Assembly (NCBI GenBank): GCA_021823345.1
Contig: JAKAOF010000003.1
Location: 23,545-87,544, forward strand
Direction of reading: 5' to 3'
Origin: Thermoplasmata archaeon
GTDB lineage: Archaea > Thermoplasmatota > Thermoplasmata > Lutacidiplasmatales > UBA184
Length of the DNA: 64,000 nt
The notes under the pieces were generated by a model. It worked only from the letters and a program-made list of their open reading frames with translations. It was not told where the DNA came from and did not search any database. This document shows, piece by piece, positions 12,260-52,791 of the stretch; position 1 is the stretch's first letter; every line of letters begins with the position of its first letter. A program made the position numbers and the translations under genes.

Positions 12260-12272
12260 GATCGATGCCACT

Positions 12273-25424: not shown

Positions 25425-27371
25425 CTACCCGGCTACTTCGTCGAACATCCCCTCGATACGCGATTTTCCGGCCGCGTCCGTCGACCCGGGGAGAAGGGTG
25501 GTGATCACCACGATCCGTTTGCTGGCGGCTGCGTCAAGGATCTTCTTCAGGAACTTGACGGTCCGCTCGAGGCCATTTGCGGAGATGAGTTCGCCCAGTC
25601 CGTCGATCATCACGACCGCCGCCTCGGGTTCTTCCATGAAATGGAGCGCCCGGGCCGTGACCTCGTGGTCCATCAACCGGGGATTGTAGGTCTCCGTCCA
25701 TCCGGCGTTCTCGGAGATCCAGACGACGTTCTTGCCCGTCACGCCGTAGTCCTCCATCAGCTTGGGGGGGAAGGTGGAGGTCATGAGCAGTCCGTGACGG
25801 TCGCCCTTGACCTGTCGGAAGGCCTCGATGCCGCGAGTCGGCCGGGAGTCCATGAAGAGGTACGTTCGCCCCGCGCGCATCTCGACCGGAGCGGCCCCCG
25901 CCGCAGGGTGGGACGTTCCCTTCTCGGAGTCGCTCGTCACGGTGGACCGGGTCCGCACCCGGGTTCGAGCGGCTTCCCGCTCATGCGCTTTCTCGGAGTC
26001 GCCGTTGGTCAGGGAATCGGGAAAGATGGTTTCCACACGGGAAAGCAACTGGAGCACCTGGGTGAATCGCCGGGCCCGAAGCGCGATGGTGATCTGCTTC
26101 ACCAGGACGGCGGGCGCACGCACGTCAATCCCCCGGGTGTGCGCCATCTTGAGCCGGTTGCTGATCTCGACGATCCGGCGTTCGAGGAGCGGCTGGAGGA
26201 TCTCGATGGCCTGGGTCACCGCCATGGCCAGCATCGCTTCCCCCTCCTTGCGATGGCCCTTCTCCACGTACCCGTATGCCTTCTCGATCGAGGGGCGGAC
26301 GCGGAATGAGGAATTGCCGAGAGAGACGATCCCGTTCTCGAGCTGGTTGAGCGTGTTGATCATCGGGCCGAAGTTCGCTAGCTGGCGCTCCTGCTCAGCG
26401 GTCTCGGTCTCGAGGGCCTCGAAGTTGCGGAAGTACCCCTCGAGGTCTCGCGCCGCGTGTCGTGCGGCCATCTGCTCCAGGGCTTCGCGCATCTTGGCGG
26501 AAGCGAACGGCCCCATGTTGTCGACGTCCCGGGTGGACTCGGCAAGCAGGCCCGCACCCTTGCTGAGCAGCGCATTCCCGAGCTCCGCCTCGGCGGACCG
26601 CATTTCGGCGATGGCCTCGGACTTTTCCGAGATCTTCCAAAAGTTCGCCGCGCGTTTGAGCATTTGGGCGGCGCTACGGACGTCCACCGAATAACGCACG
26701 GCCAGCTCGACCAGCCGCTTGTTGACCTGGGCCAGCTTTGCGAAGGCGAGGTCCGGGTCCTTCTTGACGACCTCTATCGAGGGGGAGGTGGGGGGAGGAG
26801 TTACTTCGACCGGAACGACGACGGGCTCGGCGGGACGGGTCGGGACCGGAACCTCTTCTTTCTGAACGGGAGGAGAAGGAGTCGGCTCGGGTTGGACGGG
26901 GATCGGGGTCGACGGAGGCTCCACCACGGGGGAGGGAGTCTCGGGCGGTAGGGGTTCCTTCGGCTCCTCCTGAGGGGGCGAGGGGGGTGGCGACTCCGGG
27001 GCCTCCTCTACGGGAGGGGAGGGCGCCGACTGTTCCTTGGGCACTTCTACCGGAGGCGAGGGAGGTGAGGGTTGGGGAGTTTCAGGAGGAGGAGAGGGGG
27101 CCGTTTCCTCCACGGGAGGCGTTGGGGAGGGGGTCGGAGCAACGGCCGGGGGCGAAGGCGCCGGCTCCTCCTTCTCTGGCAGGGTCGGTGCCGGAGCGGG
27201 CTCCGCAGGGGGTGGGGTCGCGGCTACGGTCGCCGCCGGCGTTGGGACGGTCGGAGTCCCCAGATCCACTTGATCTGGCCAGAGTTCCTTAGGTAACCCA
27301 CAGGAGGGACACTCGAGTGCTTCTTCGGCCACTGGAGTGTCACAAACTGGACACTTGCGCTCCCCTTTCAT
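25425..27371 (-). CDS. multidomain protein: N-terminal zinc ribbon, ~180-aa Pro/Thr/Ser/Glu-rich linker, helical/coiled-coil region, C-terminal DUF835-like domain
   Basis: CPVCDTP...CPSCG. PAPSPPAVAPTPSPTPPVEETAPSPPPETPQPSPPSPP low-complexity linker. C-terminal RTYLFMDSRPTRGIEAFRQVKGDRHGLLMTSTFPPKLMEDYGV...VVMIDGLGELISANGLERTVKFLKKILDAA resembles archaeal DUF835, from memory. Confidence 0.6.
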   Translation of the reverse strand: MKGERKCPVCDTPVAEEALECPSCGLPKELWPDQVDLGTPTVPTPAATVAATPPPAEPAPAPTLPEKEEPAPSPPAVAPTPSPTPPVEETAPSPPPETPQPSPPSPPVEVPKEQSAPSPPVEEAPESPPPSPPQEEPKEPLPPETPSPVVEPPSTPIPVQPEPTPSPPVQKEEVPVPTRPAEPVVVPVEVTPPPTSPSIEVVKKDPDLAFAKLAQVNKRLVELAVRYSVDVRSAAQMLKRAANFWKISEKSEAIAEMRSAEAELGNALLSKGAGLLAESTRDVDNMGPFASAKMREALEQMAARHAARDLEGYFRNFEALETETAEQERQLANFGPMINTLNQLENGIVSLGNSSFRVRPSIEKAYGYVEKGHRKEGEAMLAMAVTQAIEILQPLLERRIVEISNRLKMAHTRGIDVRAPAVLVKQITIALRARRFTQVLQLLSRVETIFPDSLTNGDSEKAHEREAARTRVRTRSTVTSDSEKGTSHPAAGAAPVEMRAGRTYLFMDSRPTRGIEAFRQVKGDRHGLLMTSTFPPKLMEDYGVTGKNVVWISENAGWTETYNPRLMDHEVTARALHFMEEPEAAVVMIDGLGELISANGLERTVKFLKKILDAAASKRIVVITTLLPGSTDAAGKSRIEGMFDEVAG

Positions 27372-28228: not shown

Positions 28229-29605
28229 TCAACCCGAACCATCTGCTCTAAGGCGGTGCGAAGGACGCAGCACCGCGAGCCGGAACCGCGTGTCGCCCGG
28301 CAATGCCGCGAGATGCCGCCGGGCCGACTCCGCGGGGAGATGGATTCCCAACAGGTGGGAACGATCTACCGCGCTCCCTTCGGCCGCTTCGGGGGGGAAC
28401 CGGGTCCGACAGGACCGGCAACGGTACCCCTTGCCCCGCCCCAGGGAGTTCGCCGATCGATGGCAGGTCGGGCACACCGGATTCCTCCGCTTCAACATGT
28501 GCGAGCGGAGGGACCGCACCTGGATCCCTTCCAGACGGAGAACGGGATCCTTCGCCCCCCAGGGGACGCTCCCCCAAACGGAGATCTCATCCCCCGGGAC
28601 GAGCTCTCGGACGACCCCGACAAGCTCCTTGCCCGGTTCGAACGCGAGGCAGGGGATCTCCCCTGTGTCATCCTTGAGCGAGAAACGGACGTGTCCGCCG
28701 CGAAGCGATAGGGGGGCCGAGGCGAGGGCCCCAGAGAGCGCGGGAGTCATCCCGGGTGCCACCTGGGAGACCGGGAGGGACTGAACATGGTCCCCGGTCG
28801 CTTGGTTGCTCACAAAAAGGACCCGCCGGTCCACCGCTTCGGACTCCACACTACACGAGGCGTCGAGCAGACGACGCGGCGCTCGCCCCCGGACACCGAA
28901 GAGGATGGGGCACGGGGTGTGCGGGGTGACGAGGAGTCGATGGTGCTTCTCGTCCCAGGACAAGAAGGTCTCCGGGTATTGGTCGGCCATCTTTTGCACG
29001 CTCTCGGCGCTCACCGACCGAGGGGTTCCCCATCGGGAGCGTTTCCGGTAGCTGATGACCTCCCAGGTACGGCGTTGGCCGGGCCAGGCGATGGCGGCTG
29101 CGGCACCCACGATGCCCGCGCCGCTCCCGTAGCTCACGTATCCGCTGCCGGGAACGTTGCCCAGGCACTCGACGGCCTGTTGGGGAGTCACTTCGGTCCG
29201 CACGGCCGACCAATATAGTTCGCTCGGGAGGAGGCGAGGAGCCCACGCGAGCGCCGGGTCGGTCCCCGGCTCTCCCCATCGGGCCTCCCGCCGCAGGACT
29301 CGCAGGACCCGTCCAAGGAACGCTTGGAACTCTCCCCCCGATAGCGGTCGCCCCCGGAGGAACGCGCGCACGGTCTCCCCGCCCCAGATCCCGACCGGGC
29401 GCCGGGGCCCCGTACCGTGGACCAGATGGAGGGCGAGCGCCGCGTTCCCGCGGGTCTTGAACGGAACGTTCGGGTTCAGCCGAACGAGACGAGGGTACCC
29501 TTGGATATCCAGACCGGCGTCCAGGGCCCCCCGTAGGATCTCGGAGACCACCCAAGTGGTGCACCCCCCCGTGGGGGAGTCCGTATCATCGACGCCGAGC
29601 CACAA
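28229..29605 (-). CDS. tiaS: tRNA(Ile2) 2-agmatinylcytidine synthetase TiaS
   Basis: N-terminal MWLGVDDTDSPTGGCTTWV (the characteristic TiaS kinase-like start) and C-terminal zinc ribbon CPTCHRS...CRSCRT. 458 aa. Confidence 0.8.
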   Translation of the reverse strand: MWLGVDDTDSPTGGCTTWVVSEILRGALDAGLDIQGYPRLVRLNPNVPFKTRGNAALALHLVHGTGPRRPVGIWGGETVRAFLRGRPLSGGEFQAFLGRVLRVLRREARWGEPGTDPALAWAPRLLPSELYWSAVRTEVTPQQAVECLGNVPGSGYVSYGSGAGIVGAAAAIAWPGQRRTWEVISYRKRSRWGTPRSVSAESVQKMADQYPETFLSWDEKHHRLLVTPHTPCPILFGVRGRAPRRLLDASCSVESEAVDRRVLFVSNQATGDHVQSLPVSQVAPGMTPALSGALASAPLSLRGGHVRFSLKDDTGEIPCLAFEPGKELVGVVRELVPGDEISVWGSVPWGAKDPVLRLEGIQVRSLRSHMLKRRNPVCPTCHRSANSLGRGKGYRCRSCRTRFPPEAAEGSAVDRSHLLGIHLPAESARRHLAALPGDTRFRLAVLRPSHRLRADGSG

Positions 29606-32603: not shown

Positions 32604-33842
32604 ATGGGGGTCATGAAGAGTCTCAAGGAGAGCGTGTGGCCCACGGGAAAGAAGAACCTCGGTTCTCCGGTCTATGTCGAGGAGGACGGCCCCATCCTGG
32701 GGATCGTGGACGATGTCTTCGTGGACCGTTCCTCGGGCAAACCCCTCGCCTACAAGATCCTCGCCTCGGGCCAATACTTGGAACTTCCGGCCGAAGCGGT
32801 CTCGGAAACCCCCGGAGGCTACATCTACCGTTCGCCGTGGTTCGCCGAGGCGGATGCCCTCCTCCGGAAGCTCGAGGGACAGAACCTCGTCATGCCCGAG
32901 CTTTTCTTCTCGACCCCCGCGACGGCGAGCTCGGACCGCCGGCTGCTCGAGTCCGCCATGCAACGCTCCCCCGCCCTCAAGAAGCTGGTGGATGAGGCGA
33001 AGGACCTCCACAAGGATCTCCTGCCGCGGCTTGAATCGATGGAGCAGGAGAAGGCCCGCCTCGTCGGACAGATCGCGGACCTTACCGAAGGGATGGCGAG
33101 CGGACGGATCGACAAGGAATCCTATCGCGAGGGATTCGTCGCCCTGAAACGCCGGCTCCAAGTTCTTGACGCCTCCGTGCGGCGGGGAGAATCCCTGCGT
33201 TCCCGCCTCGAAGGGGTTCCCTTCGTCCGGCTTTCCTTGAACGGCCATGCGAGCCATGCTCGGGAGCCCACCAACGGGCACACCCCGGCATTCACCGGTA
33301 CGCCCGTGGCGCCCGGCGCCCGCCCCGAGGAATGGCGGCGGGTGAAGAAGCTCCGGGTTCTGCGGTCCGAAAAGGAGATCCGCGAGAAGGAAGAGCACCT
33401 GGCCAAGATGGAGAAGGAGCTTGAGCACTTCGGACTTCCGCTGGACCAAGCGGTCCAGGCCCTGGCCTCGGACTTTGCCACCCTTTCGGAAGCGAGCGAG
33501 CGCGGCCCCGAAGCCCTCAAGGCAGAGCTTCGCCGCCGGCTCGAGGTGGTCCGACCCTCGCCTGCGCCCAGCGCTGCCGCGAAGTCTAGCAAGTCCCTTC
33601 CCGACCTTCCCTCTGAAAATCCGAAAGCCACCTGCGCGTTCTGCGGTGAGCCCTTGAAGGGCGGGGAGCCCACGTGTCCCGCCTGCCACGCGGATCTCGC
33701 CCATGTGGAACGGGCGAAGGAAGGCGCGGGAGCGCCCTCCAAGACGGATGTCTTCTTCAAGGGAGGTGGGGCCACCAAGACCGGGGTCGTCCTCCTCGTC
33801 ATCGGGGCCGCACTGTTCCTGCTCAGTCACTTTTTGCACTGA
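32604..33842 (+). CDS. tail-anchored PRC-barrel protein with long coiled coil and C-terminal zinc ribbon + TM anchor (CdvA/CdpB-like architecture)
   Basis: N-terminus GKKNLGSPVYVEEDGPILGIVDDVFVDRSSGKPLAYKI (PRC-barrel-like). Residues ~130-330 are heptad-rich and charged. CAFCGEPLKGGEPTCPACH zinc ribbon. C-terminal TGVVLLVIGAALFLLSHFLH. Confidence 0.6.
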   Translation: MGVMKSLKESVWPTGKKNLGSPVYVEEDGPILGIVDDVFVDRSSGKPLAYKILASGQYLELPAEAVSETPGGYIYRSPWFAEADALLRKLEGQNLVMPELFFSTPATASSDRRLLESAMQRSPALKKLVDEAKDLHKDLLPRLESMEQEKARLVGQIADLTEGMASGRIDKESYREGFVALKRRLQVLDASVRRGESLRSRLEGVPFVRLSLNGHASHAREPTNGHTPAFTGTPVAPGARPEEWRRVKKLRVLRSEKEIREKEEHLAKMEKELEHFGLPLDQAVQALASDFATLSEASERGPEALKAELRRRLEVVRPSPAPSAAAKSSKSLPDLPSENPKATCAFCGEPLKGGEPTCPACHADLAHVERAKEGAGAPSKTDVFFKGGGATKTGVVLLVIGAALFLLSHFLH

Positions 33843-33880: not shown

Positions 33881-35701
33881 ATGGTGGACCCCGAACCGCC
33901 CCAACCCGCCCCCCGCAAAGCCCCATCCAACGAATCCAATTCCACGCTCGACGATATCGCGAGCGACCTCGACTCTATCCTACGCAAGACGGACCAGCAG
34001 ATCGCGAACGGTGCCGCGGAGCAGCCTCCGGCCCTGAAGGAAACGGACTCGGTGCTCGACGAGATCCTCGGCGAGGAGAAGTTCGTCGGGGACGAGTCCC
34101 TTTGCCCGGCGTGCGGTGCGGTGACGAACGTCTATTCGGACCGCTGCGACAATTGCGGGGCCCTCTTCGATGACACCAGTTGCCGGTGCGGTCACTGTGG
34201 GGCGGAGGTTCCCAAGGAGGCGCTCTTCTGCACGGCCTGCAACATGCCCCTCACCGAGAGCGAAGCGCTCTGTCCGGTCTGTTCCACGGCGGTGCCCTAC
34301 CGGGCGGCCAGCTGTCCCTCCTGCGGCTCGGAACTGGCGGAAGGGGATGTCCGATGCGCCAGCTGTGGGAACATCGTGGAACCCAATGCCGTCGCATGTA
34401 CGGCCTGCGGTACCCTGCTCATCGAGGGGGCGAAGACCAAGTCCGAAGCGGTTGCCCAGATGATCAGTCCCCCTTCAGGGACCATCGTGGCGACGGCCGT
34501 CCCGGTCAAGGCGGTCCTCGAGGGAGGAGGAGGGGTCTCCGAGGTGGCGGTCGATAACCGCATCGAGAACAAGCTCACGGTCGAGGCCGTCCTGAAGCCG
34601 GCCCCGGAGCCCGAGGGCCCGCGAAAGCCCAAGGGGGGGAACCTGGTAGACAAGGCGCGGGAGCGGCGCAAGGAATCGCTGTTCCCCTTTACCGCCGTCA
34701 TCGGACAGGAAAAGATGAAGCTCGCCCTCATCCTGAACGTGGTCGATCCCCTCGTCGGCGGGGTGCTCATCACCGGGCAGAAGGGGACGGGCAAGTCGGT
34801 GACCGTCCGGGGTCTCGCTGAGATCACCCCCGAGATCCGGGTCATTGACGGTTGCCGTTTCTCATGCGATCCGGACAAGCAGAGCTACTGGTGCTGGGAG
34901 TGTCACGAGAAGTACGACCAGACCGCGCCCGAATCCTTGCCGGTGAAGAGCCGCCCGCTCCGGGTCGTCGACCTTCCCCTCAATGCGACCGAAGACCGGG
35001 TCGTGGGTACCCTCGACGTGAGCAAGGTCCTCACCGAAGGGGTCTTCCAGTTCGAGTCCGGGGTGCTGGCGGAAGCGAACCGCGGTGTCCTCTACGTGGA
35101 TGAGATCAACCTCCTCGATGACTACGTGGTGGATGTCCTGCTCGACGCGGCCGCCATGGGAGTCGTCACGGTGGAGCGCGAAGGAGTCTCAGTCCGCTAT
35201 CCGGCCCGGTTCGTGATGGTCGGAAGCATGAACCCCGAAGAGGGAGGATTGCGTCCCCAGTTGCTCGACCGGATCGCCCTGGAGGTGTCGGTGACCGGCA
35301 TCGAGGCCCTCGACAAGCGGATGGAAGTGGTCCAGCGCCGCATGGACTTCGAGAGCGATCCCCTCACGTTCCGGGGTCGCTTCGACATGGAACAGCAGTC
35401 GGTGCGCGAGAAGATCCGCCTTGCCCGGGAGATCCTTCCTCGGGTGAAGATCCCCCCCAAGCTCTTTGCGTCGATCCCCAAGGTGACCACCGCGTTCGGA
35501 GTCGATGGGCACCGGGCGGACATTATGATCGAGCGGGGAGCGGCGGCGCTCGCGGCCTACGAGGGCCGGACCGCGGTCGATGCGGAGGACATCTTCCGGG
35601 TGGCCGACATGGTGCTGCCCCACCGTATGCGTCGCAAGCCGTTCGAGCAAAACGAGTTCTCGAGCGACCGGCTCAAGCGGCTCATCGCGGACACCCTTTG
35701 A
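33881..35701 (+). CDS. ChlI/BchI-family AAA+ ATPase with N-terminal multi-zinc-ribbon domain
   Basis: Eight CxxC pairs (CPACGA, CDNCGA, CRCGHCGA, CTACNM, CPVCST, CPSCGS, CASCGN, CTACGT). Then FTAVIGQEKMKLALILNVVDPLVGGVLITGQKGTGKS, GVLYVDEINLLDDYVVDVLLDAAAMGVVTVEREGVSVRYPARFVMVGSMNPEEGGLRPQLLDRI and AAYEGR...LPHR. This is near-canonical ChlI with a Cys-rich insert CRFSCDPDKQSYWCWECH. Confidence 0.8.
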   Translation: MVDPEPPQPAPRKAPSNESNSTLDDIASDLDSILRKTDQQIANGAAEQPPALKETDSVLDEILGEEKFVGDESLCPACGAVTNVYSDRCDNCGALFDDTSCRCGHCGAEVPKEALFCTACNMPLTESEALCPVCSTAVPYRAASCPSCGSELAEGDVRCASCGNIVEPNAVACTACGTLLIEGAKTKSEAVAQMISPPSGTIVATAVPVKAVLEGGGGVSEVAVDNRIENKLTVEAVLKPAPEPEGPRKPKGGNLVDKARERRKESLFPFTAVIGQEKMKLALILNVVDPLVGGVLITGQKGTGKSVTVRGLAEITPEIRVIDGCRFSCDPDKQSYWCWECHEKYDQTAPESLPVKSRPLRVVDLPLNATEDRVVGTLDVSKVLTEGVFQFESGVLAEANRGVLYVDEINLLDDYVVDVLLDAAAMGVVTVEREGVSVRYPARFVMVGSMNPEEGGLRPQLLDRIALEVSVTGIEALDKRMEVVQRRMDFESDPLTFRGRFDMEQQSVREKIRLAREILPRVKIPPKLFASIPKVTTAFGVDGHRADIMIERGAAALAAYEGRTAVDAEDIFRVADMVLPHRMRRKPFEQNEFSSDRLKRLIADTL

Positions 35702-35789: not shown

Positions 35790-37559
35790 TTGACGGTGGC
35801 AAATCCGCAGGACAACTCGAATGAACTGGACGCCGAGATGGCGTTCATCCAGAAGAAGATCAACGAGGGCGTCTCCCGGAAGCAGAAGGAGCTCGACGAT
35901 CAGCATCGCCGGGAAGTCGAGGAACTGCACCGGGGCCATGAAGCTCGGCTGGCCGAGAAGGAACGGGACCACCGTGCCGCCATCGATGCGGCCGACCGGA
36001 ACCATCGCGCCGAGATCGAGAAGCAGGACCGGGACCAGCGCGCGGTCCTAGAGGCGACCGAGCGCAAGCACCATGCCGAGCTGGAGAAGCAGGTCCGGGA
36101 GATGCAGGAGAAGCACGCCGCGGCCCTGGAGGAACGCAGCGAGAAGCTTTCGAGCGAGTTCGCCGTGGAGTTCTCCCAGCAGGAGCAGTCCCTTCGGGCC
36201 AAGTTTGCCGAAGAACGCAAAGCCCTGCAGGAGGACATGCAGCGCCGGGCGGATGCTGATCTCGCCCGCGACAAGCGGGACCTCGAGGAGACCTACCAAT
36301 CCAAGGCGCGAAAGCGAGAGGAAGAGCTCAAGGAACGCTTCGACACCGACCTCAAGAACCGGGAAGCGGAGACCCGCCGGGCGCTCGAGCTCGACTACCG
36401 ACAGAAGCTCACGGAATCCCAGACCAAGCTGGAAGAGGACCTCCGGAACCGTTCGAAGGACCTCCAGCAGGCGGCTGAGAAGGCGGCCCAGCAGAAGATC
36501 GACCTCGAACGGGCCCGGATCGAGAACGAGAATGCCCGCAAGCTCGACACCGAGGTCAGCCGGGTCGAGCATGAACATCGGCAGAAGCTCGCTGAGGCCG
36601 AGGGGTCGCTGAAGGAGAAGTACACGAGCTCCCTGGAGACCGAGCGGCACAAGATCGAGGAAGAGTTCCGCTCGCGGCTCCTGAAGCGGGGCCGGTACGC
36701 CCGGCTCTCGCACTCGCTCAAGCGGCCGCTCTACCCGTTCCCGGCGTTCGTGGGCCTGGAAAAGGCGAAGCGCGCCCTCCTCCTGAACGCGATCAATCCC
36801 AACGTCAACGGTGTCGTGCTCTGGGGTCGGCAGGGGAACGGCAAGTTCTCCATGCTGCTTTCCTTCGCCGAGATGCTGAACTCGATGGACCGCGAGCTGG
36901 TCGGTCGCCCCGAGGATTTCCGACCGTGGAACGACGAGGAACGCTACCTCACGGGAAGGGTCCACTTCGGCAAGGAGATGGCGGTCTATCTGGTCGACAC
37001 GTACCTCCAGTGCGCTACCCTTTCCCTGCCGCCGTCCCACAAGCGAACGGAAGGGCAGGGAGGGGGGGAGATGCCCCAGATGCTCCTGTCGAACCTGAAG
37101 GACGAGGACGAGCACGCATACCACCTCCTCAACGGGTTCACGCTGCATGTCGAAGTGGCGAGCCCGAACACGGTGGAGGAGCGCCTCGAGATCATGCACC
37201 GGAACGCCGAGTTCCGCAAGGAGCCGGCCGCTTTCCGGGAGAAGTACCGTCACACGGTCGAGGAGATCCTCGCGAACGTGCAGGGCGCCCGGGAGAAGGT
37301 CGGGTCCGTGGCGATCTCGACGAAGATCCTCGCCTTGGTGGCACGGATGACGATCCTGGACAAGCAGAGCTCCCGGCTGGATGTGCTCATGGAGCAGCTG
37401 GCCCGGACCAATGCCGCGTTCGAGGGTCGCTCCGAGGTCGACCCGACCGATGTGATGGAAGCGGCGGACCTGGCGTTGATGCACCGCCTTACCCCCCGAG
37501 AGATCGCTGATCTGGAGCGTTCCCTTCCGCACGAGAACGCGCCTCCGCGCCCGAAGTGA
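35790..37559 (+). CDS. ChlI-like AAA+ paralog with degenerate Walker motifs and ~300-aa N-terminal 11-residue-repeat (hendecad) charged helical domain
   Basis: The C-terminal half aligns with ChlI (FPAFVGLEKAKRALLLNAINPNVNGVVLWGRQGNGKF and AAFEGRSEVDPTDVMEAADLALMHR). Walker A is GRQGNGKF (the S/T is lost). Walker B is YLVDTY (the Glu is lost). The N-terminal half is E/R/K/Q-rich with RxHRAEIEKQD-type 11-mers. Confidence 0.7.
   Translation: MTVANPQDNSNELDAEMAFIQKKINEGVSRKQKELDDQHRREVEELHRGHEARLAEKERDHRAAIDAADRNHRAEIEKQDRDQRAVLEATERKHHAELEKQVREMQEKHAAALEERSEKLSSEFAVEFSQQEQSLRAKFAEERKALQEDMQRRADADLARDKRDLEETYQSKARKREEELKERFDTDLKNREAETRRALELDYRQKLTESQTKLEEDLRNRSKDLQQAAEKAAQQKIDLERARIENENARKLDTEVSRVEHEHRQKLAEAEGSLKEKYTSSLETERHKIEEEFRSRLLKRGRYARLSHSLKRPLYPFPAFVGLEKAKRALLLNAINPNVNGVVLWGRQGNGKFSMLLSFAEMLNSMDRELVGRPEDFRPWNDEERYLTGRVHFGKEMAVYLVDTYLQCATLSLPPSHKRTEGQGGGEMPQMLLSNLKDEDEHAYHLLNGFTLHVEVASPNTVEERLEIMHRNAEFRKEPAAFREKYRHTVEEILANVQGAREKVGSVAISTKILALVARMTILDKQSSRLDVLMEQLARTNAAFEGRSEVDPTDVMEAADLALMHRLTPREIADLERSLPHENAPPRPK
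35898..36705 (+). repeat. imperfect 33-bp tandem repeats (coding) giving ~25-28 consecutive 11-residue repeats
   Basis: The DNA period is visible at 35898-36130 (gatcagcatcgccgggaagtcgaggaactgcac / cggggccatgaagctcggctggccgagaaggaa / cgggaccaccgtgccgccatcgatgcggccgac / cggaaccatcgcgccgagatcgagaagcaggac ...). It continues more degenerately to about 36700. Confidence 0.6.
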
Positions 37560-42324: not shown

Positions 42325-42955
42325 GATGCGGATCATCGAGATCTTTCACTCGTTCCAAGGCGAGGGCCCCCGGACCGGAGTGCGGACGGTCTTCATCCGG
42401 ACCGCTCGGTGCAACCTCCGCTGCGAGTGGTGCGATACGAAGTACTCGTTCGAGGAAGGGAAGGAGGTCCCGATCGAGGAGGTCCTGCGCCTGACCGGCG
42501 AGTACGGGACCAAGGAGGTTTGCCTCACCGGAGGGGAGCCCTTGCTGCAGCAAGAGAGCCCGGAGCTGGTCCGTCGCCTCTCGGGGCAGGGCTATCACAC
42601 GGTCATCGAGACCGGAGGTTCCCTGGACATCGGCCCCTATGTCCTCATTCCCGATGTTACCATCAGCCTCGATGTGAAGTGTCCCACCTCCGGGATGCAG
42701 GACACCTTCCGAGGGGAGAACCTCGGGCTCCTCCGCGCACACGACGTGGTGAAATTCATCATCGCGGACCGTCGGGACTATGATTTCGCCCGCGATTTCC
42801 TTGCGAAGAACCCCCTGGTTTCCCAGGTTGTGTTCCAGCCCGTATGGGGAATGCCCGTGCGAGAGCTCGCAGAGTGGACCCTGGCCGACCGGATGGAGGT
42901 ACGATTGATGTTGCAGGAACACAAGTACATCTGGGGAGACGTCCGGGGGCACTAG
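42325..42955 (+). CDS. queE: 7-carboxy-7-deazaguanine synthase QueE (radical SAM)
   Basis: MRIIEIFHSFQGEGPRTGVRTVFIRTARCNLRCEWCDTKY...CLTGGEPLL, a QueE-like radical-SAM core in the archaeosine/queuosine precursor pathway. Start set at the first in-frame ATG after the leuS-divergent spacer. Confidence 0.8.
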
Positions 42956-43029
42956 GCCCGGACGGAAGTCCTTCGATCGCTCACCAGAAGAAAGGTTTAA
43001 GAGGTCTGAGAAGGTCTCGCACGAGGTCT

Positions 43030-46000
43030 ATGCGCGCGAGTATCCTCGCCTCCGTCGTAATGTGCCTGCTGGTCGTATCGATGTTTCCGGTCTCCTCCGC
43101 GTCTGCGATAGCCCGGAACACGGCAACTCCCTCGAGCGTCAGTCACCAACCGCTGTCGGGAGTGCTCCTCCCAGCGACCCGGTCCCCCATCAAGCACGTG
43201 ATCATCGTCATCCAAGAAAATCACGCGTTCGACAACTACTTTTCCAACTTCTCCGGGGCGTTCGGTCTTCCCCCAGGCGGGGTGCCCCAGCCGGGATCGT
43301 ACTCCAACGTCACGTCCTATCATCCCCAGTATCCGCTTACCTGGAACTACGGGGGAAACGAGAGCTTCTCCAACCCGGAACACGGGGAGGATAGTATCCT
43401 GGGCGAACAGGACAACGGGTCCATGGATGGGTTCTTCTACAAGGATGGGGGCGAGGCCAACGGGCTCTTCCCCTCGTACATCGTGTCGAACTCGCTCGGG
43501 CTCGCCGGGGAATACGGTGTGGCCGACAACTACTACACCGACTTCGCCGGACCCACGCTCCCCAACCGGCTTTACTACTACGGCATTTCCCCCGGGACCG
43601 CCACGAGCGACAGTAACCCCCCGGGAGATGCCATCACCGTCCCGAACCTCCCCCAGGAACTCCAGCAGAACGGGATCTCGTGGGCGTCCTATGACGGCAG
43701 CTACAATCAATACCCGGGCTCCTCGTGCGCCCTGGCGCTCTTCCCGACGGACCCCTGCTGGTACTTCACCTACCTGAACAGCAGCGACCCGGCGGCCCAG
43801 CTTGCGCCGGAGCTCTACTATTCCTGGCTGCAGCAAGAGTACAATTCCACGGGCGCCATCCCCCAGCTCCGGAACTACAACGTCATCTACTCGAACCTTA
43901 CCTCGAACACCCTTCCCAGCGTGTCCTGGTTCACCTCGGACTGGACATGCTGCACGGAGCACCCCTCGGACGCGAACACCTCGTTCATCGGCGGTAACGT
44001 GAGCCAGGGGCAGCAATCGTTCCTGGAACTCGTCCATGCCGTCGAGGACAGTTCGTACTGGAATTCCACGGCGATCTTCCTCACGTATGATGAGGGAGGA
44101 GGATTCTTCGACTCCAGCCCGAGCCCGATGGCCACCCCGATGGGGACCGGACTGCGCGTCCCACTCATCGTCATCTCCCCTTACTCGAAGGAGGGCTACG
44201 TCTCGCACACGTACCTTACCCCATCCTCGCTCCTGCATTTCGTGGAGTGGAACTGGGGATTGCCGTCGCTCGGCTGGCTCGATAACAGCTCGAACCTTCC
44301 GCTCGGTTTCTTCAATTTCTCCGAGACCCCGCGGCAGCCGCTGAACCAGTCGGTCTACGGTTCTGCGAACCTGACGACCACGGTACCGTGGGTGCCTCAA
44401 GTGGTTGCGTCCGGCTACAAGGGCAGTTACGTGCCCTCGCTCTTGACCAACCACGATGTGAACTGGACGTACCAGACGCAGAACGTCCTCACCAATGCCC
44501 CGGTCCTCTCGTCAGGAGCGCTCTACACGTGCGGTCTGGACGGGATCCTGCGCAGCCTCAACCCGACCACGGGGGCCCTGCTATGGCAACGCTCGCTCGG
44601 CTCGGGCTGCCGTTCGTCCCCCACACCACTCCTGGGGGGAGGAGCGATCGCCACCACCCTTCACGGTAGCGTGGTCGCCTACGGCGCGAGCGGGACCCTC
44701 GCCTGGAACATTTCCCTCTCCGCCCCGATCTACAACAACCTCACCCTGGTCGGAAGCACCTACTACGGGGACCTGCAGAATGGTACGGTCTTCGCCATCA
44801 ATGGGACGACCCATGTGGTCCAGTGGGAGAAGCGCGAGAGCGCGACCCCCATCTACGCGTCGCCCGTCTACGATGCGGCGAATCACTATCTGTTGCTGAG
44901 CGCCACCGGGAGCGGGGTCATCGCGATCAATCTCACGGGTAGCCCGGTGTGGACGGCGCACGTCCCGGGTGGGACGTTCGCTCAAGGGGCCGTTTGTGGG
45001 ACCTCCTTCTACGTGACCAGCCCCGCGGGAGGACTTTACCCCATCGCCCTCCCCGCCGGCACGGTGGGGACGCCCGCGGCCCTGAACGACTCCCTGGCGA
45101 CACCCCTGTGTTCCGGCAACGATCTCTTTGTCGGGGACAACACGACCTTCCGAGCGTTCTCGCTCTCCCCGTCGCTGACCCAGCTCTGGAGCAATACGAC
45201 CCACAGCATGCAGGGTGGTTCGGCCGTGGCATCCGGCTCGAGCATCCTCATGGATACGCAGGGAGGGAACATCGAATGGTTCTCGCCCAATTCCAGCGCC
45301 CCCTCGCTCGTCTGGAACAGCGGCACCTCGTTCTTCGGGACCCCGCTCGTCACCCCCTCCTGGCTCTACTTTACGGGCGAGGACGGCAACGTCTACGGGG
45401 CCGTGACCCGCGGTGCGATCCAAGTCCAGGTTCTCCCGACGAACGCGACCGTCTCCATCAGCGGGGTCCCGTTGGCTACCCCCGGTGGGACGGGTACGGC
45501 CCTTGAGTCCCCGGGATCCTACACGGTTTCGGCCAGCGCACCGGGATATGCCACGGCCTCGAAGACGACGAGCGTGTCGCTCGGGAGGACGTCCTACGTT
45601 AACCTGACCCTCGCCCAGAACGTCTCCAAGGTCGTGATCTCGAGCTTCGTGGCGAACCCCTCGTCCTTCACGCTGGGCAACTCGACAGCCCTCACCGTGG
45701 TTGCCTCGGGCGGGAAGCTCCCCTACACCTACGCCTATTCGGGCCTGCCGAAGGGTTGCGGGGGAAGCAACGCCGCGAACATCTCCTGTGCTCCGACAGT
45801 CACGGGAACCTTCACCGTGGGGGTCAACGTTACCGACTCCCTCGGCAGTTGGGCCGTTCAGTCGACCACGTTCACCGTGAATCCCGTGGCCGTGGGAGCT
45901 CCCACGATCACCTCATTCACCGCCAATCCCAGCACGATCACTTTGGGCAGCTCGACCGTCCTCACCCTCACCGTCACGGGGGGGACTCCGCCGTACACTG

Positions 46001-46902
46001 AGTCCTACAGCGGGCTCCCGGGCGGCTGTCTGAGCTCGAACACCACCACCCTCTCGTGCAAGCCCACCACGTCGGGAAAGTTCACCGTGGTCGCGACCGT
46101 GGTGGATGCGCGCGGAAAATCGACCACCGACTCCGTGGTCCTCATGGTCTCGGCCCCGGCAGGTTATCCGACGGTGTCGCTGGCCGCCAGCCCGGCCAGT
46201 CTGGTGTTGGGGAACTCCACCACGTTCCAAGTAACCGTCACCGGAGGAACGGCGCCCTTCACGTACGCCTACACCGGCCTTCCCACCGGATGTACGAACT
46301 CAAACGCCGCAACATTGGCTTGCACGCCGACCGCGGTCGGAAACTACGACACCTACGTGAACGTCACGGACGCGAACGGTCACTCCGGTTCGGGAACCGC
46401 CCCGGTGACCGTTACGGCACCGCCCACCGTGTCGAAGCCCCAGATCACGTCGTTCACGGCCTCGAGCAATCCGGTCACTGTGGGAAGTACCACCCAGTTT
46501 AGCGTGAAGGTCACGGGCGGTGTGACCCCCTATTCCTTCGCCTACTCGGGCCTCCCCACGGGTTGCGCGAGCGTGAACACCAGTGCGTTCACATGCTCCC
46601 CGACCGCCACGGGAACCTTCAACGTCACGGTCGTGGTGACCGACGCGCACAAGCAGGTCGCCCGCGATTCGCTGTCGTTGAGCGTGCAGAATTCCCCTAC
46701 GAAAGGGGGGAGCTCCGGGAACAGCTTGGGTGGAGATACGCTGTACCTCATCCTGGCGGTCGTGGTCGCTGCGGTCGTCGTGACGGCACTCCTGCTCCAC
46801 CGCCGTAGGAAGTCCAAAGGGGAGCCCGCTCCCGCACCGGAGCCTGCCGCCCCGGCCACCGAGGCGCCGAGCCCCAGCGGCGAGGCATGGACCGGGCAAT
46901 AG
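43030..46902 (+). CDS. giant membrane-anchored ecto-protein: signal peptide, phosphoesterase (PLC/AcpA family) domain, PQQ-like beta-propeller, 4 tandem Ig-like (He_PIG/PKD-like) repeats, C-terminal TM anchor
   Basis: MRASILASVVMCLLVVSMFPVSSASA signal. VIIVIQENHAFDNYF (phosphoesterase family hallmark). Repeated LYTCGLDGILRSLNPTTGALLWQ-type PQQ blades. Four ~88-aa repeats containing PYTxAYSGLPxGC...TGTFTVxVxVTD. LYLILAVVVAAVVVTALLLHRRRKSKGE anchor. Very many NxS/T sequons. Confidence 0.75.
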   Translation: MRASILASVVMCLLVVSMFPVSSASAIARNTATPSSVSHQPLSGVLLPATRSPIKHVIIVIQENHAFDNYFSNFSGAFGLPPGGVPQPGSYSNVTSYHPQYPLTWNYGGNESFSNPEHGEDSILGEQDNGSMDGFFYKDGGEANGLFPSYIVSNSLGLAGEYGVADNYYTDFAGPTLPNRLYYYGISPGTATSDSNPPGDAITVPNLPQELQQNGISWASYDGSYNQYPGSSCALALFPTDPCWYFTYLNSSDPAAQLAPELYYSWLQQEYNSTGAIPQLRNYNVIYSNLTSNTLPSVSWFTSDWTCCTEHPSDANTSFIGGNVSQGQQSFLELVHAVEDSSYWNSTAIFLTYDEGGGFFDSSPSPMATPMGTGLRVPLIVISPYSKEGYVSHTYLTPSSLLHFVEWNWGLPSLGWLDNSSNLPLGFFNFSETPRQPLNQSVYGSANLTTTVPWVPQVVASGYKGSYVPSLLTNHDVNWTYQTQNVLTNAPVLSSGALYTCGLDGILRSLNPTTGALLWQRSLGSGCRSSPTPLLGGGAIATTLHGSVVAYGASGTLAWNISLSAPIYNNLTLVGSTYYGDLQNGTVFAINGTTHVVQWEKRESATPIYASPVYDAANHYLLLSATGSGVIAINLTGSPVWTAHVPGGTFAQGAVCGTSFYVTSPAGGLYPIALPAGTVGTPAALNDSLATPLCSGNDLFVGDNTTFRAFSLSPSLTQLWSNTTHSMQGGSAVASGSSILMDTQGGNIEWFSPNSSAPSLVWNSGTSFFGTPLVTPSWLYFTGEDGNVYGAVTRGAIQVQVLPTNATVSISGVPLATPGGTGTALESPGSYTVSASAPGYATASKTTSVSLGRTSYVNLTLAQNVSKVVISSFVANPSSFTLGNSTALTVVASGGKLPYTYAYSGLPKGCGGSNAANISCAPTVTGTFTVGVNVTDSLGSWAVQSTTFTVNPVAVGAPTITSFTANPSTITLGSSTVLTLTVTGGTPPYTESYSGLPGGCLSSNTTTLSCKPTTSGKFTVVATVVDARGKSTTDSVVLMVSAPAGYPTVSLAASPASLVLGNSTTFQVTVTGGTAPFTYAYTGLPTGCTNSNAATLACTPTAVGNYDTYVNVTDANGHSGSGTAPVTVTAPPTVSKPQITSFTASSNPVTVGSTTQFSVKVTGGVTPYSFAYSGLPTGCASVNTSAFTCSPTATGTFNVTVVVTDAHKQVARDSLSLSVQNSPTKGGSSGNSLGGDTLYLILAVVVAAVVVTALLLHRRRKSKGEPAPAPEPAAPATEAPSPSGEAWTGQ
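45621..46700 (+). repeat. four tandem ~265-bp coding repeats (Ig-like domain repeats) inside the giant ecto-protein gene
   Basis: The protein-level repeats ITSFTANPSTITLGSSTVLTLTVTGGTPPYTESYSGLPGGC..., VISSFVANPSSFTLGNSTALTVVASGGKLPYTYAYSGLPKGC..., SLAASPASLVLGNSTTFQVTVTGGTAPFTYAYTGLPTGC... and ITSFTASSNPVTVGSTTQFSVKVTGGVTPYSFAYSGLPTGC... are visible directly in the ORF translation. Confidence 0.6.
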
Positions 46903-47306
46903 TCCATTTTGACGGGGCGTCGGTCCTCGCCCGCGGGCGGTACATCGGCGGGTGGGGCTTCACGGTCGAAGCACCCTCGATCCACCGGGAAGAGTTCGGT
47001 CACCTCGATCTCGCGGAAAGCGGGGCCACGAACAACGTAGCCGAGTACACCGCGGCGGTCCGGTCGCTCGAATACCTCGTGCAAGCCGGGTACCACGGAC
47101 CGGTCGAGGTGTACGGAGATAGCCAGCTGGTCGTCCGCCAGTTTACCGGAGAATACCGCGTGCGGGCCGAACACCTCCGACCGTACCACGAACGCCTCCA
47201 GGCCCTGGGCCGCTCCTTCGAGAGTGTACGATTCATCTGGATCCCCCGAGAGGAGAACCAACGGGCCGATACCCTGAGCAAGCAGGGGCTTTCTGGCGAA
47301 GGCTAG
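46887..47306 (+). CDS. rnhA: ribonuclease HI
   Basis: FDGAS...NNVAEYTA...YGDSQLVVRQ...EENQRADTLSK, the RNase H catalytic D-E-D-D context. The start overlaps the giant gene's end. Confidence 0.85.
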   Translation: MDRAIVHFDGASVLARGRYIGGWGFTVEAPSIHREEFGHLDLAESGATNNVAEYTAAVRSLEYLVQAGYHGPVEVYGDSQLVVRQFTGEYRVRAEHLRPYHERLQALGRSFESVRFIWIPREENQRADTLSKQGLSGEG

Positions 47307-48073
47307 CTCAGGGGGCGCAGGGCCTCGACCAGCGCCTCGACCGAAGGCTCTTGCGGGACCAGCACCCGTTCGACCCCGGAGCGCACGAGCGCCTGGAGCG
47401 TCGACGGGCCGATGGCCCCGAATCGCATGTTGGGGTACTGGCGCTGGAAGTCGCGGCCCGTCTCCGCCAGCCAAGCATGGAAGGCCCGGACGGTGTTCTC
47501 CGAGGTGAAACCGAGGGCCTCCACGACGCCCGAGTCGAGCAGCTCGGAGAGCTCGCGTTCCGCCGTCGGGCTACGCTCCTCGGCGTAGATCGACACCTCC
47601 TCCAACGAGAATCCACCTTCTCGGAGGGCATCCCCCAGTTCCTTCCGTCGGGAGAGATTGTTCGGCCAGAGGATCCGCTGGGCACCGTGGGAACGCAGGG
47701 ACTGGGCAAGGGTTGCGCCATCGGCGGAGGACGGGATGAGCCCCACGGAGATCCCGTGCCGACCGAGCTCTTCGGCGGTCTTCGCCCCGATGGCCGAGAC
47801 GTTCCAAGGAGCGAACTGCTGCCCGGGAGATGATGCTCGCACCCGGCCCTCCATGAAAGCGAGCGTGAACCGGACGGCGTTCGCGCTGGTGAAGACGAGC
47901 CATCCCGTGCCATCCGTGGGGGCGGTCTCGAGGGCACGAAGCAGGTTCACCCGCCGCTCCAAGATGGGCACGAGCTCGAGCAGGAAGACCTCTCGCCAGT
48001 CCCCGGCCTCCATCCGGGCAAACTCCGCAGGATCCAGGTCCGTGATGGAGCCGATGCGGAGGATGACGATCAT
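47303..48073 (-). CDS. hemD: uroporphyrinogen-III synthase
   Basis: HEM4-like (LVFTSANAVRF...RILWPNNLSRR...AIGPSTLQAL). Start trimmed to the internal Met that forms an ATGA overlap with the upstream stop. Confidence 0.75.
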   Translation of the reverse strand: MIVILRIGSITDLDPAEFARMEAGDWREVFLLELVPILERRVNLLRALETAPTDGTGWLVFTSANAVRFTLAFMEGRVRASSPGQQFAPWNVSAIGAKTAEELGRHGISVGLIPSSADGATLAQSLRSHGAQRILWPNNLSRRKELGDALREGGFSLEEVSIYAEERSPTAERELSELLDSGVVEALGFTSENTVRAFHAWLAETGRDFQRQYPNMRFGAIGPSTLQALVRSGVERVLVPQEPSVEALVEALRPLS

Positions 48074-48465
48074 CGCACCAGGGGGCCGATCACGAAGAAA
48101 CCCACGAGCAGCAAGATGAGCACGGTGAGGGCGAGCCACGTGAGGGGTCGGTCCCCGACCTTGCGGAAGTACCACATTCCGGAGAACACCCGTACGACGG
48201 GAGTGGCGGCGAGCACGATGACCCCGAGGGTCATGAACGCCTCGGTGTGCAAGGTCAGCAGGCCCTGCAGCAATCCGCTGGGGGTCAGATAACCGACGAT
48301 CGGATTGTTCGACACCAACTGTCCCGGGGTGATCGACGGATACCGGCTCACGTAGGCCGCCAGCGACACGAAGATGATGGCGAGGGCCAACGCGAGTCCG
48401 ACCCGGAGGACGAGGGCCATCCGGGAGTACGCTTCCGGCGGCAGGAGGGGCTCATCCGACTTCAA
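48070..48465 (-). CDS. small membrane protein, DUF1634-like (partner of TauE/SafE)
   Basis: 131 aa with three TM helices, immediately downstream of and overlapping a TSUP/TauE gene. That pairing is typical of DUF1634. Confidence 0.5.
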   Translation of the reverse strand: MKSDEPLLPPEAYSRMALVLRVGLALALAIIFVSLAAYVSRYPSITPGQLVSNNPIVGYLTPSGLLQGLLTLHTEAFMTLGVIVLAATPVVRVFSGMWYFRKVGDRPLTWLALTVLILLLVGFFVIGPLVR

Positions 48466-51931: not shown

Positions 51932-52791
51932 CGGGCCGGCCCCCGCCGGGCCAGGACAAGATGGAAAGGAAGTGCCTTCGCCGAATGGGTGATGTATCCG
52001 ACCGAGGCGAGATCCGCGCCCGAACGGGCATACGCCTCCACGTTATCGATCCCGATCGAGCCGGTGGCCTCCAGTTCCACCTTCGCCCGTACACCCGCCC
52101 GGATAAGGTGTTGATGGATGCCGGCCACCTGGGAGGGGGAGAGATTGTCCAGCAGGAGGCGGGGGACGCCGGCCCGGGCGGCCTCGAGCGCTTCGTTCCG
52201 GTCGTGCACCTCGACCATGAGAGGTATCCGGTGGGCCCGGGCATAGCGAAGCGCCGACTCGAGACTCGGCTCGAAACCGACCAGTCGCTGATGATTTCCC
52301 TTGACGAGAACCGCATCCGAAAGGTCGCGCCGGTGCGGCTCGCCTCCGCCGTGGGTGACAGCGGACTTTTCTAGGTCGCGGAGTCCGGGCAACGTCTTCC
52401 GGGTGGCGGCCACGCGGAAGCGGGGGTTGGCGCGCCGTGCGCGCACGACCACGGAATGCGTCGCGGTCGCCACCCCGGAGAGGTGCATGACGAGGTTGAC
52501 CAGGGTCCGCTCGACGGCCAGGACCTTCCGGGCTGGACCCGTCAGGGTCAGCACGAGGGTTCCCGGGGAGACCCGGTCTCCATCCCGGGCGTGAAGCCGG
52601 ACCGTGAGGCCCACCGAGCGGGCGAGCGCTCGCGCGACGGCGACCCCGCTGAGGATACCCGTCCCCTGCGCGACCAGTCGGGCGGACGCACCCATTCGGA
52701 TCGGGATGCTCGCGAGGGAGGTCACATCCTTTGCGAAGTGGTCCTCTCGAAGGAACGCTTCGAGCCCGCGCCCGGGTTCGCTACTTCCCAT
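51928..52791 (-). CDS. nadC: nicotinate-nucleotide pyrophosphorylase (quinolinate phosphoribosyltransferase)
   Basis: QPRTase-like (TRKTLPGLR...AVTHGGGEPHRRDLSDAVLVKGNH...LLDNLS). 287 aa. Confidence 0.85.
   Translation of the reverse strand: MGSSEPGRGLEAFLREDHFAKDVTSLASIPIRMGASARLVAQGTGILSGVAVARALARSVGLTVRLHARDGDRVSPGTLVLTLTGPARKVLAVERTLVNLVMHLSGVATATHSVVVRARRANPRFRVAATRKTLPGLRDLEKSAVTHGGGEPHRRDLSDAVLVKGNHQRLVGFEPSLESALRYARAHRIPLMVEVHDRNEALEAARAGVPRLLLDNLSPSQVAGIHQHLIRAGVRAKVELEATGSIGIDNVEAYARSGADLASVGYITHSAKALPFHLVLARRGPAR

Follow-up and report, generated by a model that had tools for sequence, protein, structure and literature searches.

A four-ribbon zinc array fused to a ChlI-type AAA+ motor in Thermoplasmata: a candidate membrane-linked remodelling machine

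ZnR-ChlI and the proposed system

The 64,000-nucleotide stretch of Thermoplasmata archaeon DNA analysed here (assembly GCA_021823345.1, contig JAKAOF010000003.1, positions 23,545 to 87,544; below, the window, with coordinates counted from its first letter) contains a gene for a 606-residue protein, ZnR-ChlI, in which an array of four predicted zinc ribbons precedes a complete AAA+ ATPase module of the ChlI/BchI type. The gene is adjoined downstream by one for a degenerate ChlI-derived protein (pseudo-ChlI) and upstream by one for a tail-anchored protein. The explanation that we favour, with a confidence about evenly poised, is that ZnR-ChlI is a ChlI/ChlD-derived, membrane-linked remodelling motor using its acidic zinc-ribbon array as a protein adaptor. 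The N-terminal array, the pseudo-ChlI partner and the membrane-linked neighbourhood are new, while the Cys4 motif in the ATPase core is already ordinary. Searches of the literature on ChlI together with zinc ribbons and archaea, on AAPxQ and on double zinc ribbons with AAA+ found nothing describing the fusion or its partners.

The only role known to us for ChlI/BchI motors is to power tetrapyrrole chelatases. The way in which they transmit force to partner subunits is a matter of current work, and the lineage described here is a natural test case for the other tasks that a ChlI ring might perform and for how adaptors engage it. In public data the proteins carry the automatic name 'magnesium chelatase subunit I' or 'zinc ribbon domain-containing protein', neither of which captures the architecture of array plus motor.

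The features of the gene and of its downstream partner are listed below, with the evidence in brackets; AF2 stands for AlphaFold2, pLDDT for its predicted local distance difference test score and A1 for our alignment.

33881..35701, forward strand: ZnR-ChlI fusion gene, 606 aa plus stop (open reading frame list, sequence, public gene calls, Pfam)
33881..34096, forward strand: N-terminal acidic region, aa 1-72, with predicted helices 20-44 and 51-62 (AF2), net charge -11, ending in LDEILGEEKFVGDE
34097..34414, forward strand: four tandem Cys4 zinc ribbons, predicted, aa 73-178 (eight CxxC, Pfam DZR, 16 invariant Cys, AF2 hairpins)
34103-34156, 34187-34240, 34271-34324 and 34355-34408, forward strand: ribbons 1-4 (CxxC coordinates)
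34415..34666, forward strand: flexible linker, aa 179-262 (pLDDT <50 at 182-253; homologues vary in length and sequence)
34667..35698, forward strand: complete ChlI/BchI-type AAA+ module, aa 263-606 (phmmer against the PDB, Foldseek, A1, pLDDT)
34775-34798, forward strand: Walker A, GQKGTGKS, aa 299-306 (invariant in A1)
34853..34903, forward strand: Cys4 motif C325-x3-C329-x8-C338-x2-C341, in insertion i1, between helix alpha1 and strand beta2
35087-35104, forward strand: Walker B, VLYVDE, aa 403-408 (invariant in A1)
35790..37559, forward strand: coiled-coil pseudo-ChlI, 589 aa (alignment, Pfam AAA_lid_2, partial NCBIfam ChlI/ChlD matches)

The start codon of ZnR-ChlI is ATG 33881, preceded at a distance of about 10-14 nt by a GGAGG-type motif, and the same 606-aa product has been called independently in public assemblies. 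A longer open reading frame starting from GTG at 33674 was rejected, since it would overlap the upstream gene (stop at 33842) and the public calls begin at ATG 33881. Pfam assigns DZR, Zn_Ribbon_1, Mg_chelatase and AAA_lid_2 to the protein. An earlier reading made from the sequence alone (the sequence-only reading) had proposed an N-terminal fusion to a ChlI-type ATPase and had pointed out that canonical ChlI/BchI lacks such a domain; the fusion is real, and photosynthetic ChlI/BchI does lack the domain. The 21 cysteines of the protein comprise 16 in the eight CxxC pairs, C101 and four in the core (C325, C329, C338, C341), with none elsewhere. The closest relatives of the fusion protein come from metagenome-assembled genomes (MAGs) of Thermoplasmata.

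The zinc-ribbon array

The eight CxxC pairs (CPAC75, CDNC89, CGHC103, CTAC117, CPVC131, CPSC145, CASC159 and CTAC173) follow one another with a period of exactly 14 residues from C75 to C176 (nt 34103-34408). Cysteine makes up 17 of the 106 residues of aa 73-178 (16%) against 0.7% in 20 other open reading frames of the window, and none of 200,000 shuffles of the protein reached seven CxxC, while the real protein has nine; the cysteine array is therefore real and not a product of chance. No tandem repeat is seen under it at the DNA level, so it is neither a recent duplication nor an assembly artefact.

As a double zinc ribbon we counted a PF12773 (DZR)/PF13240 (Zn_Ribbon_1) match that passes the gathering score and has two CxxC knuckles in each ribbon, and the array has both: DZR scores 53.6 bits over two stretches (cutoff 27.3) and Zn_Ribbon_1 42.6 bits (cutoff 25). 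The Pfam registers join knuckles 3 with 4 and 7 with 8; the knuckle types alternate between "CPxC" at odd and "CxxCG..F/L" at even positions, giving a super-period of 28 residues; and AF2 repeats a beta-hairpin pattern four times with the same 28-residue period, both in the full-length model and in a model of the array alone. Because of these registers, the alternation and the modelled repeat, the eight knuckles are read as four Cys4 ribbons (two Pfam DZR units) rather than eight. The sequence-only reading had counted eight zinc-ribbon pairs and suggested a run of four to eight ribbons: its eight CxxC pairs stand, but the predicted ribbons number four.

The pLDDT of the array is 60-79 overall, being 60-72 in the full-length model and 71 on average in the array-only model, which was built from 32 sequences. 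A Foldseek search of the array model against the PDB gave nothing significant (best E 0.026), the weak matches all being zinc modules such as LIM, RING and PolD, and the N-terminal 253 aa gave only chance-level zinc-finger matches (E >= 0.2) against PDB sequences. Used by itself as a profile query, the array brought up small stand-alone multi-ribbon proteins only, with no informative fusions among them. With the known DZR and C(P)XCG proteins (PMC11241148), of which stand-alone tandem arrays of 120-200 aa exist, the array of ZnR-ChlI shares the knuckle motif and the spacing C-x2-C-x10-C-x2-C; it differs from the stand-alone arrays in being a fixed four-ribbon unit fused to an AAA+ motor.

Conservation of the fusion and the charge of the array

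The 120 best homologues of ZnR-ChlI were scanned with a hidden Markov model of residues 66-184. The complete four-ribbon unit was found in 56 of them, always upstream of the ChlI core, and the 16 knuckle cysteines are invariant in all 56, whereas C101 is kept in only 17. Conservation of the extension in orthologues, on which the sequence-only reading had made its case depend, is thus borne out. The flanks of the array behave differently. The segment that precedes it ranges from 0 to 413 aa among homologues, and sister clades carry HHH_5, DUF835 or extra ribbons there; in ZnR-ChlI itself this region (aa 1-72) has no Pfam match, and its closing motif LDEILGEEKFVGDE is conserved in A1. The linker between array and core varies from 1 to 105 aa (median 63), with a short motif, NRIENKLTVEAVLK, conserved in A1 within an otherwise variable sequence. 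Judged from the alignments and models, the four-ribbon unit is rigidly conserved between variable tethers that are predicted to be disordered. Residues 211-235 of the linker (34511-34585) contain a conserved motif, V-x-E-V-x-V-x-N-R-I-E-N-K-L-T-V-E-A-V-L-K, which could be a docking peptide.

All 56 homologous arrays are net acidic, with a median charge of -10 and a pI of 4.4. The rest of the locus is not acid-shifted, the product of the nearby tiaS gene having a pI of 10.1 and the tail-anchored neighbour one of 8.2. Of the two kinds of ligand that the sequence-only reading had offered for the array, a protein partner is therefore favoured and nucleic acid is disfavoured. The alternative that ZnR-ChlI is a nucleic-acid-directed AAA+ motor, in which zinc modules and an ATPase of the H2-insert clade would recall MCM, draws on the fact that zinc ribbons often bind nucleic acids, on the helix-hairpin-helix domain (HHH_5) that a sister clade fuses upstream of the same array, and on weak MCM matches of the ATPase core in both Pfam and Foldseek. 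Besides the acidity of every array, this alternative is opposed by the absence of an OB-fold N-terminal domain, by the lack of consistent linkage to replication, repair or RNA-processing genes and by the confinement of the MCM matches to the shared P-loop core, where the template-modelling score (TM-score) is about 0.35 compared with 0.9 for ChlI; we consider it very improbable. An assignment to the MCM helicases themselves was rejected, as the Pfam MCM match covers residues 380-456 only (29.7 bits) and overlaps the far stronger ChlI assignment.

The ATPase core and its Cys4 motif

Solved ChlI/BchI proteins share about 45-50% identity with the core, and a phmmer search against the PDB finds ChlI (8osf, E 8e-104; 6l8d, 2e-100) and BchI (1g8p, 4.5e-89). 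The AF2 model of this part has a pLDDT of about 90, with 1g8p, 8osg, 8osf and 6l8d as the top Foldseek matches (TM-score 0.89-0.93). Alignment and the AF2/Foldseek comparison agree in showing the ChlI fold with the insertions i1, i2 and i3 and the back-displaced lid. Apart from the Walker motifs, sensor-1 N451, the arginine fingers R458 and R464 and sensor-2 R545 are invariant in A1, and the lid domain is present; the core is expected to form an active ATPase ring. Of the curated NCBIfam models, BchI-ChlI (TIGR02030) scores 411.5 bits, under its equivalog cutoff of 466.95, and putative cobaltochelatase (TIGR02442) 467.9 bits against a cutoff of 779.45, with positions 1-322 of its 641 matched and the VWA half unmatched. 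ZnR-ChlI thus shares with ChlI/BchI (1G8P, 6L8D, 8OSF) the full AAA+ module with i1, i2 (H2), i3 (PS1), displaced lid and ATPase motifs; it differs in its 262-aa N-terminal extension with four putative ribbons, in the four cysteines of i1, in having neither ChlD nor ChlH nearby and in its host, a non-phototrophic archaeon.

A Cys-rich insertion within the ATPase module had been flagged as atypical by the sequence-only reading. The motif itself is real (C325-C341), but it is neither inserted nor unusual. In the alignment with solved ChlI (8osf, 6l8d), the segment GCRFSCDPDKQSYWCWECH falls opposite "ANDPFNSDPSDPDLMSDEVRQK", the sole gap being one of two residues just downstream, and this near-gapless alignment means that the Cys4 segment is not an extra insertion. 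The pattern C-x3-C-x8-C-x2-C occurs in 115 of the 120 best matches, among them 374-aa stand-alone proteins from Methanococcoides and Methanolobus. Of the 150 best cluster representatives at 50% identity, 123 have it, and 96 of these 123 are ChlI-ChlD fusions of the TIGR02442 type. It is also present in Terrisporobacter muris, a Firmicute, and in a horse-gut archaeon, where the adjoining gene encodes a full ChlD with AAA+ and VWA. By this distribution the i1 Cys4 motif is an ordinary hallmark of a large cobaltochelatase-like ChlI subfamily; it should be annotated as marking that subfamily, with no reason to flag it as unusual. The insertion i1 is specific to ChlI/BchI; in the ATP state it folds on the ring's top face, and a contact with partner subunits has been suggested for it (bioRxiv 10.1101/2023.04.15.537025). 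The four cysteines probably provide a structural metal site that stiffens i1. The TIGR02442 fusions and the stand-alone archaeal and Firmicute ChlI proteins belong to the same subfamily as ZnR-ChlI, with the same i1 motif and a core 50-60% identical to it, but all these proteins, those of Methanococcoides and Terrisporobacter among them, have no array and carry or adjoin a VWA/MIDAS domain, whereas ZnR-ChlI adjoins the VWA-less pseudo-ChlI.

With 16 cysteines in the array and four in i1, all 20 conserved, ZnR-ChlI might be thought of as a metal or redox sensor or buffer, its ATPase being gated by reversible metal loading or by disulfides. Archaeal C(P)XCG motifs may bind zinc, or cobalt or nickel, or no metal at all, and AF2 cannot decide between these states (PMC11241148). 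The motor family is one of metal chelatases, and in one sister locus (L003) a gene for an 85-aa thioredoxin/glutaredoxin-like protein (9979-10236) stands directly after that of ZnR-ChlI, a possible hint of redox control. Against this, the invariant cysteines keep the regular C-x2-C-x10-C-x2-C spacing typical of structural zinc ribbons, the i1 motif is common to hundreds of ordinary ChlI relatives and the thioredoxin neighbour is confined to one lineage, which leaves a sensor or buffer improbable.

The pseudo-ChlI partner

The protein encoded at 35790-37559 begins with about 300 aa of coiled coil, in which 141 of 300 residues are K, R, D or E, together with His-rich E-x-x-HR repeats. Its pseudo-ChlI part is 24% identical to the ZnR-ChlI core and lacks a segment of about 80 residues spanning beta2, the H2 insert and Walker B; Walker A reads GNGKF and no arginine finger is left, but both the N-terminal helix and the lid persist. 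The next-best database matches are ChlD-like proteins. Pseudo-ChlI adjoins ZnR-ChlI in ten loci (L001, L002, L005-L010, L024 and L025) and lies one gene further in L023. The deletion of the Walker B/H2-insert segment is common to all these partners, including those of the distant lineages L023, L024 and L025. A family size of only 14, as given by a word-index search, was discarded as an underestimate on direct comparison of the sister loci.

With ChlD/BchD, pseudo-ChlI has in common its descent from ChlI and the presumed pairing of an inactive, degenerate AAA+ domain with an active motor. It differs in that the extension is N-terminal, so that the order is reversed, and consists of a coiled coil in place of the Pro-rich linker and VWA domain, and in that the Walker B/H2-insert segment is physically deleted.

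Membrane-linked neighbours and sister loci

The other genes considered as parts of the system are the following.

32604..33842, forward strand: tail-anchored neighbour, 412 aa, with PRC-like N-terminus, coiled coils, a zinc ribbon and a C-terminal transmembrane (TM) helix at 388-412
25425..27371, reverse strand: DUF835 protein, 648 aa, with an N-terminal ribbon C-x2-C-x10-C-x2-C, a helical middle part and a C-terminal DUF835
L003 5633-7996, L021 3594-5993, L023 2651-5008 and L025 2602-5001 (sister loci): surface protein of about 790 aa, with signal peptide, CarboxypepD_reg/Ig-like domains and C-terminal TM helix

The trio of tail-anchored protein, ZnR-ChlI and pseudo-ChlI is kept in eight loci (L001/L002/L005-L010), with the upstream gene inverted in two. 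The PRC-barrel match of the 412-aa protein is weak (E 0.003, 17.9 bits, below the cutoff of 21.2); the architecture of the protein may loosely recall that of the PRC-barrel cell-division factors CdvA and CdpB. Its zinc ribbon, C344-x2-C347-x10-C358-x2-C361, has the same x10 spacing as the array, and ribbons of this spacing are found also on the VWA partner in L025 and on the DUF835 protein, a recurrence that hints at a shared docking mode.

In four sister lineages the surface protein is encoded immediately upstream of ZnR-ChlI, with a gap of 4-8 nt or an overlap of 1-8 nt. The order in L025 is a 799-aa protein with signal peptide and C-terminal TM helix, ZnR-ChlI, a pseudo-ChlI matching that of the window at E 1e-68, and a VWA protein with a C-terminal zinc ribbon. 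In L021 the surface protein is accompanied by a homologue of the tail-anchored protein (E 4e-27) and by a VWA protein; in L023 it stands with ZnR-ChlI and, one gene beyond, pseudo-ChlI, and L003 has the surface protein, the ZnR-ChlI orthologue and then the thioredoxin-like gene. The VWA partner of the sister loci is homologous to the AAPxQ-VWA protein that follows the stand-alone Cys4 ChlI in Methanococcoides. In L024 (3330-7118, in a MAG labelled Omnitrophica), where ZnR-ChlI is directly followed by pseudo-ChlI, the pair is succeeded by TPR plus Ras/Roc-type small GTPase, AAA_16 and AAA_16-VWA proteins.

The DUF835 protein contains a Pro/Ser/Glu-rich linker of about 190 aa of low complexity, and its synteny is seen in close relatives only. 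Two database proteins (P0042 and P0059) join a DUF835 directly to a ChlI of this clade, which may represent a Rosetta-stone link to the protein at 25425-27371, a possible member of the system.

Proposed mechanism and its alternatives

The motor would be a clade 7 AAA+ ATP-hydrolysing ring of the ChlI family, from its non-photosynthetic, cobaltochelatase-like subfamily, which in a Thermoplasmata lineage may have gained an N-terminal four-ribbon module held between flexible segments. About 24 tethered ribbons would surround a hexamer, and the acidic array may serve as a multivalent protein-binding adaptor rather than a nucleic-acid binder. Pseudo-ChlI would form the inactive partner tier of a heteromeric ChlI/ChlD-like assembly, taking the place of the catalytically dispensable AAA+ domain of ChlD, with its coiled coil as an output or adaptor element, and the Cys4-stiffened i1 may help the partner to dock. 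The tail-anchored PRC-like/coiled-coil/zinc-ribbon protein would recruit the assembly to the membrane, to which sister lineages would add the VWA (plus zinc ribbon) protein and the single-pass surface protein of about 790 aa. The most likely task of such a machine is to remodel or assemble some protein substrate associated with the membrane, and not to work for a tetrapyrrole chelatase encoded nearby.

A precedent for part of this scheme is found in the MoxR/ChlI-VWA pairs (CbbQ/CbbO, NorQ/NorD, CobS/CobT), which are clade 7 rings whose force reaches a client through an adaptor that engages the ring; in the cobalt chelatase the adaptor CobT puts a shaft into the CobS ring (bioRxiv 10.64898/2026.07.21.739949). 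The likeness extends to the sister loci of ZnR-ChlI, which include a VWA protein, but the present lineage has none adjacent, and neither the zinc-ribbon array nor the pseudo-ATPase partner has a counterpart in these pairs.

The most serious competitor is that ZnR-ChlI still drives a class I (CobN/ChlH-type) tetrapyrrole chelatase for cobalt, nickel or magnesium, with CobN and the VWA subunit encoded elsewhere and the array as a regulatory or assembly add-on. The identity of the core to bona fide ChlI/BchI, the cobaltochelatase and BchI-ChlI models as its best NCBIfam matches, and its nearest non-extended relatives, which are TIGR02442-type ChlI-ChlD fusions or ChlI with full ChlD neighbours, all fit this possibility, as do the VWA partner kept in sister loci, a HemD within the window and the example of Haloferax, where chlID adjoins cobN (PMC8305020). 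The scores, however, lie under both curated cutoffs, and no CobN/ChlH is found either in the 64-kb window, where all three open reading frames of at least 900 aa are something else, or in the neighbour lists of about 12 related loci. It is with membrane and surface proteins, and not with tetrapyrrole genes, that ZnR-ChlI is repeatedly linked, and the conserved partner, pseudo-ChlI, has no VWA/MIDAS domain. In all class I chelatases known to us it is the VWA/MIDAS domain that bridges to CobN/ChlH. We regard a chelatase as rather unlikely on this balance.

Several points nevertheless weigh against the remodelling motor that we prefer. The core is nearest to chelatase motors, with 411 bits for BchI-ChlI and 468 bits for the cobaltochelatase model over its N-terminal half. 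A CobN gene may lie outside the 64 kb examined, and HemD (uroporphyrinogen-III synthase; 47306-48175, reverse strand), 11.6 kb from ZnR-ChlI in another operon, means that the organism makes tetrapyrroles. The window contains no homologue of the VWA or surface proteins of the sister loci. The array model is of moderate confidence, with no significant fold match, and metal binding by the array is putative in the light of the C(P)XCG precedents (PMC11241148). The proposed interactions are all read from gene order, and the substrate is putative. A wider form of the remodelling hypothesis, held tentatively and with considerable doubt, is that these proteins constitute an undescribed archaeal non-chelatase machine, in which a ChlI motor, by means of some 24 tethered ribbons on each ring, has been turned to the assembly, anchoring or remodelling of a protein complex of the membrane or cell surface, together with pseudo-ChlI, the tail-anchored protein and, in sister lineages, the VWA-zinc-ribbon and surface proteins.

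Other genes of the window

A 2-oxoacid:ferredoxin oxidoreductase, TiaS, a dCTP deaminase and an HDAC were considered as parts of the system and set aside, since their synteny is confined to close relatives. A comparison of four of the proteins with the PADLOC anti-phage defence models gave no match at E <= 0.001. Scans for bacterial-type promoters and terminators were uninformative here, the host being an archaeon. The gene at 28232-29605 (reverse strand) encodes the tRNA-Ile2 agmatidine synthetase TiaS, which bears a zinc ribbon of its own at the C-terminus; the presence of this enzyme confirms the archaeal host.

Proteins with DUF58 and VWA_2 domains usually sit in MoxR/Bat-like operons. One such protein, with the sole VWA domain seen in the window, is encoded at 10931-12520 (reverse strand), 21 kb from ZnR-ChlI, and it is unrelated to the VWA partners of the sister loci. 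Two further large proteins are a 790-aa AAA_16 plus TPR (STAND-like) protein at 52784-55153 (reverse strand) and, at 42844-46899 (forward strand), a 1352-aa multidomain protein combining a phosphoesterase, a PQQ-type beta-propeller and PKD/PEGA domains.

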